Source: Candidatus Micrarchaeota archaeon (lineage in GTDB: Archaea > Micrarchaeota > Micrarchaeia > Micrarchaeales > CABMGC01). From it: a DNA stretch of 64,000 bases. Location: positions 79,342-143,341 of the forward strand of contig JAJZYR010000001.1 of assembly GCA_021797995.1 (NCBI GenBank), given 5' to 3'. Below are positions 4,054 through 61,087 of the stretch, one piece after another (the first letter of the stretch is position 1; each line of letters opens with the position of its first letter). Below the pieces are notes generated by a model, which was given only the letters and a program-made list of their open reading frames with translations, did not search any database and was not told the origin of the DNA. Position numbers and translations under genes: made by a program.

Positions 4054-4811
4054 TTCCCTTCGCCTCCCTGCATCATGTCACGCACCATGTCCTCCATCGA
4101 GAAGATTCCCTTCTTCCCTGCTATCCACTTCGCGGCGTATATCGCTCCGGATGCAAAGCCTGCCCTGCTTCTTGCGGTGTGCGTAAGCTCAATGGTATCT
4201 GATGCGCTGTCGAATCCTACTGTGTGTATGCCTGGTATCGATCCGGCCCTTAGGCTTGCCACATGCAGCTCATCAGGTTTGATCCTCCTGTCAAGCCTAT
4301 CAAAGACTGCGCTCTTCTTTCTCTTAACATTCCTGATGACAGCATCAGCAAGCGCCCTTCCCGTACCTGAAGGCGAGTCCGCCTTCCCGCTGTGATGCGC
4401 CTCGTAGATGTAGGGATCGTATTCCGGTGCCTTGTCCATCAGCCTTGAGGCATACTCTACAATCTTCATGAAGAGGCTTGCGCCTATGGAAAAGTTTGGG
4501 CTGTATACAAGCCCGGTATTGCATCTCCTGACTATCTTTCCGGCCTCTTCCAGGCCATTGTACCATCCCGTAGTCCCGACTACCATGTCCTTTCCTGCGC
4601 CTGCAACCATCTCGATATTTGAGAGCTCTGTCTTCTGCGAGGAGAAATCTATCGCCACGTCAGCCTGCCTAAGCGAGCTCTCGCCAACTGACTTGTATTG
4701 GGCGGCAGAATCCTCTGGGTCGATGATTGCTGCTACCTCAATCCCGTTGGCCTTCGCCTGCCGCTCTACCTCCTTCCCCATATTGCCATATCCTATTATC
4801 GCTATCTTCAT
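4050..4811 (-). CDS. dapB: 4-hydroxy-tetrahydrodipicolinate reductase
   Basis: MKIAIIGYGNMGK Rossmann N-terminus and the EAHHSGKADSPSGTG signature. ATG 4811 is chosen over the upstream ORF start, which would overlap dapA. Confidence 0.85.
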   Translation of the reverse strand: MKIAIIGYGNMGKEVERQAKANGIEVAAIIDPEDSAAQYKSVGESSLRQADVAIDFSSQKTELSNIEMVAGAGKDMVVGTTGWYNGLEEAGKIVRRCNTGLVYSPNFSIGASLFMKIVEYASRLMDKAPEYDPYIYEAHHSGKADSPSGTGRALADAVIRNVKRKKSAVFDRLDRRIKPDELHVASLRAGSIPGIHTVGFDSASDTIELTHTARSRAGFASGAIYAAKWIAGKKGIFSMEDMVRDMMQGGEGK

Positions 4812-19672: not shown

Positions 19673-20560
19673 CTATTTCAGATATCTTCGATACTCTTTT
19701 ATATATCTTCTAAAGAACCACGCCACAAATATAGAATCAATTTTTTTGACCTGTGCCCTTTCCAAGGCATTATAATATCCTATCCTATTTTTGTAGGATA
19801 TATTGAGCATCGGATAACCAAGTCTGTTTAGAATAAAGTTCATAATGAGCCTTGATAATCTTCCATTTCCGTCTATAAACGGGTGTACTGTAACAAATTT
19901 TAAGTGTGCTAGTGCAGCCAACTCAACAGGATGCATTTTCATTCTGTTTTTATTGTACCAACTAAAGAAATCCTCAAGTAACGGCATGACTTCTACAGGA
20001 CTTGGAGGTATAAATTTGCTGCCATGTATCCAAACCTGCCTCGTTCGTATTTTTCCAGCTATATCCTTCTTTGTATTTTCAAAAAGAGTATGGTGCCATT
20101 CCAAGATGAGTTGCAGAGTCAGACCTTTTTTATATCTCAGCATATTATAAAAGATATTCGAATGCGCCTCGGCTTCTTTAGCATCTCTCGAAGGTTTATT
20201 TGAAGGTGTCACTCCATGCTGTAATAAATTAGCGGTTTCTTTTAGGGTTAGTGTTGAACCTTCTATTTTTTGAGTATCATAAGTAAACTTAATCATAAAT
20301 CCTTCAATTTCTTTGTCTTTTTCAGAGGGAGTTGCAGAACCGATGTCTTTTTTATAGGACGCCTTTATCTTATCCAATGATAAATACCACTTCTGAGTGT
20401 AAACCTGTGTGAGAAAATCGCTCTTTATTTTATCTAAATTCTTAGGTATACTACTCCCCAGATATTTCTCCTTCTTAATGACAGTTCCATTAAGCCTGAA
20501 AGAGTGTTCGATATAGTAGTACTTTTTATTACCGTATTTCCGTTCCCTTATATTTACCAT
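19673..20560 (-). CDS. Fic-domain protein (AMPylase family)
   Basis: HPFIDGNGRLSRL is the canonical HPFx(D/E)GNGR motif. An upstream TQKIEGS helix motif is present. ATG 20560 (MVNIRERKYG) lies about 25 nt after a minus-strand tttataaat TATA box. Confidence 0.85.
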   Translation of the reverse strand: MVNIRERKYGNKKYYYIEHSFRLNGTVIKKEKYLGSSIPKNLDKIKSDFLTQVYTQKWYLSLDKIKASYKKDIGSATPSEKDKEIEGFMIKFTYDTQKIEGSTLTLKETANLLQHGVTPSNKPSRDAKEAEAHSNIFYNMLRYKKGLTLQLILEWHHTLFENTKKDIAGKIRTRQVWIHGSKFIPPSPVEVMPLLEDFFSWYNKNRMKMHPVELAALAHLKFVTVHPFIDGNGRLSRLIMNFILNRLGYPMLNISYKNRIGYYNALERAQVKKIDSIFVAWFFRRYIKEYRRYLK

Positions 20561-20725
20561 AGTAATACTTGCCCCTACACATTTATAAATATTTGGTTTT
20601 TGATTGAAATGTAGGGGTAGATAGCTACTACTATGGGATTTGTATCCTGCCTCCTCGTAAACGTTAAATGGACTCAGCGTGGCTTCCAACAAAGTTGTAA
20701 GTTCCTCGTATATAGCTATATAACG

Positions 20726-21231: not shown

Positions 21232-21303
21232 TGGACTCTGCGGGATTTGAACCCGCAACCTCCTGCATGCCATGCAGGCGCGCTACCATTGCGCTAAGAG
21301 CCC
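21232..21303 (-). tRNA. tRNA-Ala (anticodon GGC)
   Basis: 72-nt cloverleaf. Acceptor GGGCTCT/AGAGTCC with G3:U70. D arm GCGC-AATGGTA-GCGC. Anticodon arm CCTGC-ATGGCAT-GCAGG. T arm GCGGG-TTCAAAT-CCCGC. Discriminator A, no encoded CCA. Confidence 0.9.
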
Positions 21304-21641
21304 AGAATCTGCAGTTAGAGTTGTCTGATTTGACATGTGACATCCTCCCCGGGCTTTAGCCCGGGGCTTCCCATCGGACCAAGACTTCCCGATCCGAAGG
21401 TATGTTCTCGCTTCGACGGTCCCGCTTTCGCATCCGTTTCCGGGTGCAAAGAGGCAGGATCTCCACGAGCTTCAATTCCCGCATGCCCTGCGGTACTCTT
21501 GTGCAGTATATTCCTCGCAGCATTTATATCCCTGTCGATCCGGAGGCCGCACACCATGCAGGAGTACGTCCTCTCGCCGAGAGAGATGTCCCTGATTGCA
21601 CTGCACGCGCTGCACCTTCTTGTCGTATCCTTCGGTTCCAC
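21304..21641 (-). mobile_element. tnpB: IS200/IS605-family remnant: TnpB (OrfB) C-terminal fragment plus right-end hairpin
   Basis: The translated tail PKDTTRRCSACS...YSCMVCGLRIDRDINAARNIL carries a zinc ribbon and the RuvC-III DRDxNAAxNI motif. It continues into ...GSPGLKPGEDVT, which is encoded by the GC hairpin ccccgggc-ttta-gcccgggg (21347-21366). Only about 105 aa of a normally ~400-aa protein remain. Confidence 0.7.
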
Positions 21642-21851
21642 TGGGTCTATCCTTATCCCGACCTCCTCCCTGGCCTCTCTTACCGCAGCCGCGCTGATAG
21701 CCTCGCCTTTCTCTAAGTGGCCGGATGGCATAGAGTACCATCCATCCCTGTAACCGGTGCCTTTGCGCCTTATGAGAAGTATCTTCCCCTCCTTTCTGAG
21801 TAGGATGAATACGCCAATCCTGTGGCCGCTCCGTATCTCATGTCCAGGCAT
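21642..21851 (-). pseudogene. Nudix hydrolase, N-terminal ~70 aa, fused in frame to the TnpB fragment
   Basis: The complete Nudix box GHLEKGEAISAAAVREAREEVGI is followed within about 5 codons by TnpB sequence. The rest of the Nudix fold is missing. Confidence 0.65.
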
Positions 21852-21855
21852 CCGA

Positions 21856-22083
21856 TCACGCCGGCGAGACGAATAGGATGTTTCCGCCCCTCAGAAGCAC
21901 CGTGCCTATCTTTGCCTTCAGGTTTCCGCTCTCCAGCTCCTCAGCGCCGTCGAGCACGATATTCATGTGGGCATCGAACGAGACTACCTTTCCCCTGATG
22001 TCCAGGCCGTTCTTCAGCCTTATCATCACCTGCTTGCCTACCGCCTTGTTCAGAAGGTCAAAGGGCCGTTCCTGTATTGCCAT
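21856..22083 (-). CDS. archaeal Sm-like protein (SmAP/LSm)
   Basis: 75 aa. Sm1/Sm2 pattern: VMIRLKNGLDIRGKVVSFDAHMNIVLDGAEE...LLRGGNILFVSP. Confidence 0.85.
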   Translation of the reverse strand: MAIQERPFDLLNKAVGKQVMIRLKNGLDIRGKVVSFDAHMNIVLDGAEELESGNLKAKIGTVLLRGGNILFVSPA

Positions 22084-36482: not shown

Positions 36483-36584
36483 GGGCTCGTAGCGCAGCAG
36501 TAGCGCGCATCGTTCGCAAGAAGCCTCTAAAAAAGGCTTCATCGAAAGACGATGAGGTCGCGGGTGCGATTCCCGCCGAGTCCA
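36483..36584 (+). tRNA. tRNA-Ala (anticodon CGC) with 30-nt intron
   Basis: Acceptor GGGCTCG/CGAGTCC with G3:U70. D arm GCGC-AGCAGTA-GCGC. Anticodon stem CATCG/CGATG with loop TTCGCA|A. Intron 36519-36548 sits at position 37/38 and contains the hairpin GAAGCCT-N7-AGGCTTC. T arm GCGGG-TGCGATT-CCCGC has a non-canonical loop. Discriminator A. Confidence 0.8.
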
Positions 36585-39690: not shown

Positions 39691-40022
39691 AGGAATCAGC
39701 GTATGATAACGGCATATCCACTGCCAATTACATACATGTAGCTGTTTTAACGGTCGAAGCTTAATAACCTTTATCAGTTACTTACGGAATACGCGTAACA
39801 ATATTCCACTATAAAAGATAAATTTACTTGCTTATAATGGCCCAATAAGGACGGCGTAAGCTTAAGGAAAGATTTCACTCCTTTTTCTTCATTGGTTATA
39901 TGTTTGGGGCCAGCTATGTGACATCCTCCGATGACTAAAGGTCGTTGGCTTCCCCTGCATTTGCAGGGTATGTTCTCAATTCCTCAAGCGGCTTTTCGAT
40001 TCCTGTTGAATCGCAGAGGCTA

Positions 40023-40655
40023 CTAATATGGGCTGGTGAGCTTGCCGGCGTCTGCAGATTCTTTGTGCCGCTTTATGAAATTCAGGACGACTGTAGCAGT
40101 ATGCTTGTCGTATCTCTCAAGGTATTTGTGGATCTTTTTTCTGCTTATCTTCTTTAGTAGCTCGCTGTAATCTTGAATCGGCAATTTCACCCTATAGTAG
40201 AACAGGTCTATAAGCGTCTTTTCTGGTTCAGATACAGGCACCTCCAGTGTCCCGTATTTGACTATGCCAAATCCGAAGAAATACTTTGCTGGCATGTGGT
40301 GGACGAAGACCGTTTCCTTTATATCGCCAAATATGTGTATCGAAGAGGCGCGGACCTTCCTGATGGTAATGATATCAGGCCTAGAGTTCTGTGTCCAAAG
40401 CTCCCTTATAGTTAGCGCGGACAGCAATCCATAGTAGAATGGACTGTATGCAAAGCCTGCCACCATGCTATCTTTTTTGAATGCATAGGCCCCTTTTCTA
40501 ACCGTATACAGCTTTCCGCTGCTCTTCATATACGCGATGATCCTTGTAAGGTTTGCCGTTTTCAGCTTTTTGTTTTTGAAGTATAGCTTAAGGTCCCTGC
40601 GCGTGAACACAGGGTAGTCTGAAAAATGATTAATTATGTCCTTTACTATTGTCAC
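40023..40655 (-). CDS. AbiEi-like antitoxin / COG5340-type wHTH regulator (tentative)
   Basis: 210 aa. The N-terminal pattern FTRRDL...L..L..SGKLYTVRKGAYAF resembles AbiEi wHTH domains. It overlaps the upstream nucleotidyltransferase gene by 26 nt. Confidence 0.5.
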   Translation of the reverse strand: MTIVKDIINHFSDYPVFTRRDLKLYFKNKKLKTANLTRIIAYMKSSGKLYTVRKGAYAFKKDSMVAGFAYSPFYYGLLSALTIRELWTQNSRPDIITIRKVRASSIHIFGDIKETVFVHHMPAKYFFGFGIVKYGTLEVPVSEPEKTLIDLFYYRVKLPIQDYSELLKKISRKKIHKYLERYDKHTATVVLNFIKRHKESADAGKLTSPY

Positions 40656-41328
40656 TCAACCACTTCTTTATCGTGTTCACCATCAGGTCGAATGTCGGCG
40701 GCAGGCCTGCGATTATCAGATGCCCTAAGCTGCCCATATTCGGCGGCGGATTTCCGTCTATTTTTCCAATTAATGCCTTTAGCCGTTTGACTGACGTTGC
40801 ATCAACCCTGTTGATCAGGGAAATCAGATAGTAAATATCATACAGATCCTGCACTTCAGTCTGCTTGAATCTCTCCACACTATTCAATTTATCTTCATAG
40901 GCGGCCATCTTTTCATTGAGCAGTTCCAATGGACTTAGAGATAGGACAACGATTTTGCTGCCGTCAATTTTCATGTAATCGAATTCGGTGCCCTTTTTGT
41001 ATTTGAAGTTGATGTCGATTTTCATCTTTGTGTTGGATTCTACCAAAAAGTGCATCGTGTCTGTTGCCTTTTCATATCCCTTTTCTTTCATCAGAAATCC
41101 TGAATCTTTCAAGAAATCTGAGAGCTCCTTGTAGTGCCGCATCTTTTCTTCGTTTGTCTTAGCATCGAGATAGAAGTCTATGTCTCTAGAGAACCTGTTT
41201 CCCCCATGGCATCTCCATATCGAAGTGCCGCCGTGAAACACCAGGCCGTTGTATCTGCTATACAGGAGTTCTACTAGAACGTCCTCCAGTTTTGCTTTCT
41301 CCATCTGCGCCTGATCTCTTATATCCAT
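40630..41328 (-). CDS. nucleotidyltransferase AbiEii/AbiGii toxin family (DUF1814)
   Basis: FHGGTSIWRCHGGNRFSRDIDFYL matches the GGTAL...R.S.DIDF N-terminal motif of the family. 232 aa. Confidence 0.65.
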   Translation of the reverse strand: MDIRDQAQMEKAKLEDVLVELLYSRYNGLVFHGGTSIWRCHGGNRFSRDIDFYLDAKTNEEKMRHYKELSDFLKDSGFLMKEKGYEKATDTMHFLVESNTKMKIDINFKYKKGTEFDYMKIDGSKIVVLSLSPLELLNEKMAAYEDKLNSVERFKQTEVQDLYDIYYLISLINRVDATSVKRLKALIGKIDGNPPPNMGSLGHLIIAGLPPTFDLMVNTIKKWLSDNSKGHN

Positions 41329-60156: not shown

Positions 60157-60440
60157 AGCAGTCCCATTTTATGCATTTTATTTATAACCTTTCTGCCTTC
60201 AGGCCCGCCTGTAGCCGCTTTTCTGTAGGTCTGCTTCCATGTGAGTGTTTTGTTGCCTAGTTTTACGATTGGCATATCGCGCTCTCCGACAGGCAGGATG
60301 GACATTATACGTCTTAATTTATCTACGTAATCAAGGTATAAGACCTTTGGCTTCTTTTTGCGATAGGCCGACATTCCCAGACCCTCAACCTGAGTTACAT
60401 TATACGCGCTATGTGACATTCCTCCGCCCGCAAGCGGCAT
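60153..60440 (-). CDS. small basic hypothetical protein
   Basis: 95-aa ORF. The likelier start is ATG 60374 (MSAYRKKKPKV, 73 aa), about 27 nt after cgtataatgt. Confidence 0.45.
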   Translation of the reverse strand: MPLAGGGMSHSAYNVTQVEGLGMSAYRKKKPKVLYLDYVDKLRRIMSILPVGERDMPIVKLGNKTLTWKQTYRKAATGGPEGRKVINKMHKMGLL

Positions 60441-60652
60441 GGGCTTCTTGCATCAATGGAGTAAAATCCATAGTATCATTGCCATGCACGCTTATATGCC
60501 TTTGCGGTTCGCTTTCACCCCGCCCCGAAGAGCGCGGGCTTTCCGCCACCTCCTGTCACTCGTTCCGTAGACTGTCAATTATTTATAGAAATATTCAACT
60601 TTTTATTGAAAAAAAGCAAACATTTATATATCTAAAGCTGAATAGCATATGC

Positions 60653-61087
60653 ATGGCCTCTGAGGAGAAGATCGTGGTCAGGCAGATCGGCAGGCCGCAT
60701 AAGGAGAACGCCGATGCACTGCTGGTATGGTTCTGCGAGTCGCTGGACCTGTCCGGAAATAAGGACATAATGGGGCCGGAGATGCTCAGGGAAATAATAA
60801 ACGGAAGCCTGAACGGGAACGGAGTGACGAGCAAGGAGTTGAACTGGAAGCTTAATGTACCGAGGACCACGGTGATATACCACCTGAACAGGTTTATCTA
60901 CTCAGGGATTGTGATAAGGAGGGGCAGGAGGTATTACCTGCGCTCTGAGGACATGAAGAGCACCCTGCAGGAACTCCAGGCAGACATGATAAGGGAGTTC
61001 CAGCGCATGATGGACATGGCCCAGAAGCTGGACGGGATACTGGAAGATGAGACATATGCCAGAAGGAGAAGAGCAAAAAAAGGATAG
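60653..61087 (+). CDS. winged-helix transcriptional regulator, co-transcribed with grpE-dnaK-dnaJ
   Basis: 144 aa. TSKELNWKLNVPRTTVIYHLNRFIYSGIVIRRGRRYYL is an HTH plus wing. ATG 60653 lies about 25 nt after tttatata (60623-60630). The 3' end overlaps the grpE start. Confidence 0.65.
   Translation: MASEEKIVVRQIGRPHKENADALLVWFCESLDLSGNKDIMGPEMLREIINGSLNGNGVTSKELNWKLNVPRTTVIYHLNRFIYSGIVIRRGRRYYLRSEDMKSTLQELQADMIREFQRMMDMAQKLDGILEDETYARRRRAKKG

Follow-up and report, generated by a model that had tools for sequence, protein, structure and literature searches.

The stretch of DNA analysed here (64,000 nt of contig JAJZYR010000001.1 from the Candidatus Micrarchaeota archaeon assembly GCA_021797995.1, positions 79,342 to 143,341; hereafter the window) carries on its minus strand, side by side, an LSm gene, an open reading frame (ORF) of 178 aa and a gene for tRNA-Ala(GGC). 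The ORF is a chimera, in which the 5′ half of a Nudix hydrolase gene continues in frame into the 3′ end of a TnpB-encoding insertion sequence (IS) of the IS200/IS605 type; the IS remnant in turn ends 33 nt ahead of the tRNA (Table 1). The ORF is deposited in GenBank under Ca. Marsarchaeota archaeon as MCL5419522.1 ("NUDIX domain-containing protein"), whereas the relatives of its IS part stem mostly from metagenome-assembled genomes (MAGs) of Ca. Micrarchaeota.

Residues 12–73 of the chimera match the Pfam NUDIX profile (E=1.7e-15) over positions 4–65 of 134, i.e., its N-terminal half only, and the Nudix box (GX5EX7REUXEEXGU) is present in the translation as GHLEKGEAISAAAVREAREEVGI. The opening of the ORF had been described in these terms, including a complete Nudix box, in a first-pass annotation made from the letters of the sequence alone. 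The fold itself is incomplete, with 68 residues left of the 155-aa intact orthologue. Residues 62–115 match Pfam PF07282 (Cas12f1-like_TNB, the TnpB zinc ribbon; E=2e-14), and the motif CSACS...CMVCGLRIDRDINAARNIL aligns with 13 TnpB family members. When aligned with the intact allele and full-length IS copies, the chimera switches from Nudix to TnpB at 21648/21647, inside the interval of about 21641–21653 where the first-pass annotation had seen the change to a zinc ribbon and RuvC-III motif.

Table 1 Features of the Nudix–TnpB–tRNA locus, with a second tRNA gene of the window (window coordinates)
Feature	Position	Strand	Evidence or remark
LSm gene, directly upstream of the chimera	21856–22083	-	Pfam LSM, E=9e-22; gene order same in intact allele
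Chimeric ORF, 178 aa	21315–21851	-	Nudix codons 1–68 and TnpB zinc-ribbon/RuvC-III tail, in frame
Truncated Nudix gene, codons 1–68 of 155, Nudix box included	21648–21851	-	identity with intact gene P0004
Deletion junction, 21-nt Nudix patch homeologous to tnpB	21648–21668	-	three-way alignment
IS remnant, 311 nt: last ~45 tnpB codons and right end (RE), terminus ...GGAGGATGTCAC	21337–21647	-	91–97 % identity to 3′ ends of L007, L008 and L009
TnpB coding remnant: zinc ribbon CSACS...CMVCG and RuvC-III DRDINAARNIL	21507–21647	-	PF07282, protein alignment
Predicted omega-RNA (reRNA/sotRNA) scaffold, all helices present	21337–21498	-	covariance model, covariation, fold
Terminal omega-RNA/RE stem-loop CCCCGGGC-UAAA-GCCCGGGG	21347–21366	-	3′ edge 43 nt from tRNA 5′ end
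33-nt host flank between RE boundary and tRNA; ancestral target behind the insertion motif	21304–21336	-	identity with intact allele resumes at 21336
tRNA-Ala(GGC), intact, G3:U70	21232–21303	-	ARAGORN; Rfam RF00005, 70.7 bits
Second tRNA, 102 nt, probably intron-containing	36483–36584	+	Rfam, 52.9 bits; missed by ARAGORN

Empty and filled alleles of the site

A homology search retrieved both parents of the chimera, i.e., an intact 155-aa Nudix protein (P0004), which is 100 % identical to the chimera over its first 68 residues, and TnpB proteins sharing 82–90 % identity with its tail. Contigs carrying the intact Nudix gene (L004–L006) match the window at 99.8–100 % identity over 22100–21648 and again over 21336–21258, the sole difference being that they contain 275 nt where the window contains the 311-nt IS 3′ end. 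The contig L105 (32.7 kb) of a sister MAG is collinear with the window over 3.2 kb and 3.0 kb on its two sides (99.6–99.7 % identity), and this replacement is again all that distinguishes them. The truncated Nudix stretch is 100 % identical to P0004 in L004–L006 and 99.6 % to L105, and the tRNA is 100 % identical to that of L004/L105 over the shared part. Window and sister contigs form an empty-site/filled-site pair. A 339-aa Fic/DOC-domain ORF (19673–20692, minus strand) is located two genes downstream of the tRNA, a position kept in L105.

Between 21669 and 21337, the window shares 96.7 % identity with the 3′ end of a full-length IS copy (L009, positions 395–1782, ~1.39 kb) encoding a TnpB of 440 aa (P0049); two degraded copies (L007, L008) are 91–93 % identical to the remnant. 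A further copy, on contig JAMCZO010000025 (L109), is 99 % identical to L009 and preceded by TTTAT. This contig belongs to the same MAG as the window arrangement, in the sense that GCA_023485525.1 also includes contig JAMCZO010000013, which carries that arrangement. In the alignment of 54 family 3′ ends, the terminus GGAGGATGTCAC is invariant while the next base is variable; since the invariant terminus ends there and conservation stops at the next base, the RE boundary of the window is set at 21337/21336. An element ending in GTCACT was considered on account of the T that opens all six right flanks of the close subfamily, and was rejected on account of the variation at this position in the wider family, leaving GTCAC as the end. 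The first-pass annotation had taken the tail for the remnant of an IS200/IS605 element with a destroyed TnpB and had suggested a search for intact homologues and an alignment of their right ends; the retrieval of L009 and L109, the invariant terminus and the PF07282 match all agree with that assignment.

The left end of the element is preceded by TTTAT at eight of nine independent subfamily sites, and the wider family also shows TTTAA. In the intact allele, TTTAT is followed by ATGTCAAATC, and the flank in the window begins at the same A, which corresponds to insertion directly 3′ of this transposon-associated motif (TAM) without target duplication. Left end and TAM are deleted from the window. 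Of the complete TnpB (HTH, RuvC-I, RuvC-II), only the last ~45 codons are left, and a full TnpB was not found elsewhere in the window by tblastn and blastn with the chimera tail. No tnpA is present in any fetched copy of the element, the full copies of the subfamily included. The remnant belongs to a TnpB-only (IS1341-like) element of the IS200/IS605 type, and is immobile because it has neither left end nor TAM.

Other copies of the family have decayed in ways of their own. Internal in-frame tnpB deletions with both ends kept are present in L008 (2893–3857) and P0005, and in L007 (56–1491) a frameshift splits tnpB into ORFs of 122 aa and 301 aa. L007 and L008 stem from one MAG and share the left flank, with different right flanks; at the L007 site, another sample shows a truncated copy (P0122), which is not informative.

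The left junction of the remnant lies at a short homeology between host and IS. The Nudix patch GAGGAGGTCGGGATAAGGATA and the tnpB patch GAGGATGCCGGCATGAGGGTA are identical at 16 of 21 nt and share the same codon phase (EEVGIRI versus EDAGMRV), which accounts for the in-frame fusion of Nudix and TnpB. Among 627,912 host-by-IS position pairs none scores higher than 16, and only two score as high. Since the junction falls on a top-scoring homeology, the deletion was most probably guided by it.

Accordingly, MCL5419522.1 has to be read against its intact counterparts. That it represents a functional Nudix–zinc-ribbon fusion protein is extremely unlikely, even though the frame is open over 178 aa and both Pfam domains are significant. 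Only half of the Nudix fold and the last ~45 residues of TnpB are retained, and the C-terminal ~60 residues are translated omega-RNA. The length of the product varies among the assemblies (178, 165, 156 and 145 aa), sister strains whose flanks are identical still have the complete Nudix of 155 aa, and the homology search did not reveal the fusion outside the chimera's own population; the first-pass annotation had considered a conserved fusion in relatives, and these carry a separate Nudix gene instead. It had also let the ORF end over a GC hairpin. The hairpin is real, and the passage of the frame through it is owed to the window allele, because its loop is flipped from CTTTAG to CTAAAG and an in-frame TAG is thereby lost; with the canonical loop the product has 165 aa. 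The GenBank entry is therefore misannotated: it describes a pseudogene fusion, the in-frame join being a by-product of the in-phase homeology.

The omega-RNA scaffold and its guide

The 3′ end of the IS is conserved as an RNA structure across the family. RNAalifold applied to the 54-sequence alignment yields 36 pairs, 29 of them with compensatory changes. On the predicted structure 94.9 % of the cells are paired (72.5 % in column shuffles, 35–47 % in slid controls), and the covariation score amounts to 0.593 (shuffles 0.19, slid controls 0.07–0.14). A covariance model (R1) built from 47 distant relatives, with the close subfamily left out (TnpB ~57 % identical or less to P0049), matches window positions 21337–21498 on the minus strand with 105.6 bits (E=4.7e-32) over its full length (model positions 1–164); intact or near-intact copies score 100–116 bits. 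Folding of the single remnant sequence reproduces the helices (minimum free energy −73 kcal/mol, z=−3.76), and its non-canonical pairs are the same two as in the full-length copy L009. A possible extra long-range pairing of 21533–21536 with 21339–21342 would extend the scaffold to about 21536.

Compared to the consensus tail in other assemblies, the remnant has acquired five private substitutions in 311 nt (21528, 21499, 21415 and 21356–21357), all of them in unpaired columns; its flanking host DNA is 99.6–100 % identical to the intact alleles. A complete and correctly pairing omega-RNA scaffold is thus predicted to survive in the remnant. The first-pass annotation had surmised as much for the RNA module at the right end and had proposed a covariance search with omega-RNA models; in structural terms the surmise holds. 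The GC hairpin (loop ttta on the plus strand) that it placed about 45 nt from the tRNA proves to be the last omega-RNA stem-loop, at a distance of 43 nt. At gathering thresholds, Rfam detects only tRNAs in the window, and at permissive thresholds HgcC (RF00062) matches 21324–21414 (minus strand) with 24.3 bits (E=0.0016), below the gathering score of 50 bits.

The scaffold ends exactly at the element boundary, so the guide should correspond to the first ~16–20 nt of the tRNA 5′ flank (21336 to about 21317). This is the sequence behind TTTAT in the intact alleles L004–L006 and L105, where the target reads TTTAT-ATGTCAAATCAGACAACTCT; within the window itself there is no TAM-flanked copy of the guide sequence. 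If the remnant omega-RNA is loaded by TnpB from other copies in the genome, it would direct cleavage of intact alleles (TTTAT plus the matching 20-mer). Cleavage of intact alleles by way of the guide RNA is the usual homing logic of TnpB elements.

Two further matches to the omega-RNA model are located in the window. A second RE/omega-RNA remnant (39918–40063, minus strand) is similar to L060 of another subfamily and scores 71.1 bits with R1; truly homologous are only its 3′ ~110 nt (39918 to about 40028), and its terminal hairpin is decayed. It ends in ...GGAGGATGTCAC followed by ATAGCTGG, keeps the RE side only, like the remnant at the tRNA, and borders directly on the stop codon of an AbiEi-like ORF (40023–40655), itself downstream of an AbiEii toxin-like ORF (40630–41328). 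The third match (60413–60534, minus strand) is weak (16.4 bits, E ~6e-4 for the whole window), ends in ...GGAATGTCAC and lies antisense within an ORF (60245–61087, plus strand); it may represent a very decayed RE.

The tRNA-Ala(GGC) gene and its lost promoter

In the intact allele, the region ahead of the tRNA reads TAG-CAAAAC-TTTAT, then ATGTCAAATCAGACAACTCTAACTGCAGATTCT-GGGCTC, and thus provides a B recognition element (BRE)/TATA-like sequence (GCAAAAC-TTTATAT at −38..−32 from the mature tRNA 5′ end). The RE junction falls directly behind TTTAT, which is at the same time TAM and BRE/TATA core of tRNA-Ala(GGC), 33 nt before the mature 5′ end. In the window allele, the positions −38..−32 are occupied by GTCACAT; inspection of the sequence revealed nothing TATA-like at about −38..−31, and the 33-nt flank (21304–21336, minus strand) contains neither a TATA-like box nor a T run. 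The second tRNA gene of the window has TTAAAA at −36..−31. The first-pass annotation had named the neighbouring tRNA-Ala(GGC) gene, now confirmed by ARAGORN and Rfam, and had stated that the remnant occupies its promoter region, where no good TATA box was seen; the intact allele supplies the reason, since the insertion cut through the promoter, which was subsequently deleted. In the window allele, tRNA-Ala(GGC) thus appears to be without a promoter of its own. The flipped loop CTAAAG was considered as a new TATA box of the tRNA and dismissed as too weak, comprising only 4 A/T bases inside a GC stem at −56..−51. A tRNA-adjacent insertion on the other side is found in L053 (~1390–1500), where the left end (TTTAA, then CAAAGTGAGCGGG) lies a few bases after the apparent 3′ end of an intron-containing tRNA.

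On the minus strand, T runs of four or longer are absent between the LSm start and the end of the tRNA, which renders read-through plausible. We infer that the LSm transcript is the most likely source of transcription into the remnant and the tRNA. The tRNA would then be transcribed by read-through as part of an LSm–Nudix′ transcript spanning the omega-RNA and would be cut out of it by RNase P.

One may go further and suppose that the remnant is exapted, i.e., kept since it supplies tRNA transcription, either by an omega-RNA–guide–tRNA co-transcript or by a promoter in the tnpB tail or RE, with RNase P setting the omega-RNA 3′ end. The persistence of the allele in several populations despite the loss of the tRNA's BRE/TATA would fit this view, as would the lack of T runs between LSm and tRNA and the genes 20–50 nt behind the RE across the family (see below). 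Candidate promoter motifs are an AT-rich ATATAAAT and AATATAC in the DINAARNIL codons, ~25–35 nt before the first omega-RNA helix. The private single-nucleotide polymorphism (SNP) at 21528 (C to T) changes GACATAAAT to GATATAAAT and thereby improves the first of these as a TATA-like octamer, ~30 nt upstream of that helix. However, these AT-rich motifs are forced by conserved codons, and haloarchaeal sotRNAs have no BRE/TATA upstream (PMC4615843). Persistence, moreover, says little about selection, because only one allele is concerned, a recent one whose flanks do not differ from those of the intact allele. Exaptation is therefore considered a tentative and rather improbable reading.

Unlikelier still is that the remnant is inert debris, its RNA unused and the tRNA silent or dispensable with other tRNA-Ala isoacceptors covering GCC/GCU. 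The mutated tetraloop (see below), the lost tRNA promoter and the two further, more decayed RE remnants in the window (39918–40028 and 60413–60534), which point to IS decay as a routine event, would agree with mere decay. On the other hand, all stems are intact and the private substitutions avoid paired positions, the tRNA sequence is unchanged, and read-through from LSm meets no terminator.

The spacing at tRNA-Ala(GGC) has parallels across the family. In 20 of 51 independent insertions (L014–L093), the RE is followed at 20–50 nt by the start of a co-oriented ORF of 90 aa or more; among control TTTAW sites taken from the same flanks and lying outside long ORFs, this applies to 12 of 116 (binomial p ~6e-8). 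With its crude gene calling, this comparison is a rough family-wide test. The 33 nt between RE and tRNA-Ala(GGC) fall into the same range. This suggests that IS elements of this TnpB family are as a rule placed between a TATA box and its gene, and that the genes behind the RE persist.

By extension, the TnpB family may use the archaeal TATA core (TTTAT/TTTAA) as TAM and habitually insert between promoter and gene, in the orientation of the gene and with the RE turned towards it, the displaced gene being read through and the remnant becoming part of the tRNA unit. The left end starts with AA (or CA), and TTTAT-AA would then restore a TATA-like sequence ahead of tnpB, so that the captured promoter would drive this gene; an omega-RNA–leader–tRNA precursor would be cut by RNase P, the remnant would be required for tRNA transcription, and it would at the same time provide a trans-usable guide against the promoter of the intact allele. 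Such promoter capture is speculative and on balance doubtful. The link between TAM and TATA box follows simply from the T-richness of the TAM. In the library searched, no publication was found that connects the TAMs of TnpB/IS605 elements to TATA boxes of archaea, an absence that does not prove novelty.

History of the locus and comparison with known systems

The two alleles are very probably related by a two-step history, in which a canonical insertion of a TnpB element was followed by a homeology-guided deletion. In the first step, a TnpB-only element of ~1.39 kb would have inserted in tRNA orientation directly 3′ of TTTAT, the BRE/TATA core of tRNA-Ala(GGC). In the second, a deletion of ~1.35 kb between the 21-nt patches in Nudix (codon 68) and tnpB (near codon 360) would have removed the 3′ half of Nudix (275 nt), the BRE together with the TAM, the left end and 1077 nt of the IS.

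Several observations weigh against this history or against the continued function of its product. A full-length IS between intact Nudix and tRNA was not found by an LSm look-up, look-ups of the intact-Nudix cluster and two metagenome pattern scans (the first empty, the second with three unrelated chance matches, in a collection apparently without this organism); since no such allele turned up at the site, the full-length intermediate is counted as inferred. The presumed supply of TnpB in trans rests on L109, which likely provides an intact TnpB in the same genome; its reading frame stays open over 361 aa, at which point the contig ends. The terminal tetraloop is UAAA in the window as compared to the conserved UUUA of the family: the two changed positions (alignment columns 250–251) are T in 52 and 47 of the 54 sequences, respectively, and A at both is shared only by the window allele and L045. 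This change may impair the function of the RNA and suggests that constraint on the omega-RNA may already be relaxed.

The assemblies, too, are not unanimous. Seven of them (L095, L096 and L098–L102) join the left junction to seven different right flanks, none of which is present in the window; the RE junction of these loci is at locus position 4747 (1453 in L101). Path switching of the assembler inside a repeat longer than the 141-nt k-mer is the more likely cause, because the tails of these assemblies show the consensus IS variants across a stretch exceeding 141 nt and the right flank of L096 is that of the full-length copy L009. Real IS–IS recombination is the alternative. Path switching would in turn imply several near-identical IS copies in the population. 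Although IS repeats evidently confuse these assemblies, the chance that the chimera as such is an assembly artefact is next to nil. Ten or more independent assemblies contain its left junction, the complete arrangement of the window recurs in NCBI (contig JAMCZO010000013), JGI and ENA assemblies, and private SNPs, each less than 141 nt apart, link the left junction to the tRNA flank.

A one-step origin would dispense with the deletion: in TnpB-triggered homing repair of an empty allele, the resected left end could have annealed at the Nudix/tnpB homeology on a sister chromosome bearing the IS, and only the IS tail would have been copied. The perfect RE–flank join on the right and the homeologous patch on the left are in line with such a course, as is the retention of the RE side in both other remnants of the window. 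TnpB is also known to cut on the flank side of its target, 15–21 bp from the TAM (PMC11043419). However, a full-length IS at the site in a sister copy, of which none was found, would still be needed. An ordinary intramolecular deletion gives the same junctions, and retention of the RE side is also explicable by an essential tRNA downstream. The one-step origin is hence quite unlikely, and insertion followed by deletion remains the preferred history.

On this history, intact and window allele cleanly show the natural states of a site before and after a TnpB element arrived in an uncultivated archaeon, and they supply TAM, exact target, both junctions and the mechanism of decay. If confirmed, the promoterless tRNA persisting in several populations would be a test case for read-through expression of archaeal tRNAs and for the fate of genes that come to lie behind the RE of a TnpB element. 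If true, capture of promoters through coincidence of TAM and TATA box would be a general habit of these elements, as suggested by the excess of gene starts behind the RE.

The closest characterized elements are the IS605-type TnpB7 of Sulfolobus islandicus, with TTTAA as TAM and a guide RNA ending in ...UUCAC before the guide (PMC11043419), and ISDra2 of Deinococcus (PMC8612924). As in both, zinc ribbon and DRDxN RuvC-III motif are present, the guide-RNA scaffold extends over the 3′ end of tnpB and stops at an RE of ...(G/U)UCAC, the guide is taken from the flanking DNA, and a T-rich pentanucleotide TAM (TTTAA in Sulfolobus, TTTAT/TTTAA here) precedes the left end without target duplication. 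Unlike these, the remnant consists of the last 311 nt only and has no left end, TAM or functional TnpB in cis, full copies of its subfamily are devoid of tnpA, and the target is the TATA box of a tRNA gene.

In Halobacterium salinarum, Gomes-Filho et al. (2015, PMC4615843) described sotRNAs of IS1341-type tnpB genes, including that of a tnpB pseudogene truncated to 120 bp and still retaining its RNA; in the same study, the RE-like tetraloop of HgcC (RF00062) was linked to tnpB 3′ transcripts (PMC4615843). These sotRNAs share with the present case the archaeal non-coding RNA at the tnpB 3′ end and the conserved RE tetraloop, and they set the precedent for a truncated tnpB retaining its RNA. In contrast to sotRNAs and HgcC, the tetraloop here is UUUA (UAAA in the remnant) rather than UUCA, and the HgcC score stays below gathering. 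In further contrast to H. salinarum, the pre-insertion allele, both junctions and the damage to Nudix and tRNA promoter are all resolved.

PATEs and MITE-like derivatives of IS200/IS605 elements likewise arise by internal tnpB deletion, as seen in L008 and P0005 of the remnant's family. PATEs, however, keep both ends and are mobilisable, while the remnant has lost left end and TAM and its deletion reaches into host DNA. TldR, Sigma-TnpB and others (PMC10691335) resemble the present locus in being immobilised, TnpB-derived and situated by a host gene, with a guide RNA directed towards a host promoter region. They comprise a full-length inactivated TnpB conserved across lineages, whereas no TnpB protein is left at the present locus and the allele is a recent polymorphism.

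Taken together, RNA-retaining remnants of IS200/IS605 elements are known already, including an archaeal precedent, and the locus is in this respect a known element in a known kind of decay. What sets it apart is that its history is resolved, that the TAM doubles as TATA box at a tRNA gene and that this tRNA may depend on the remnant.

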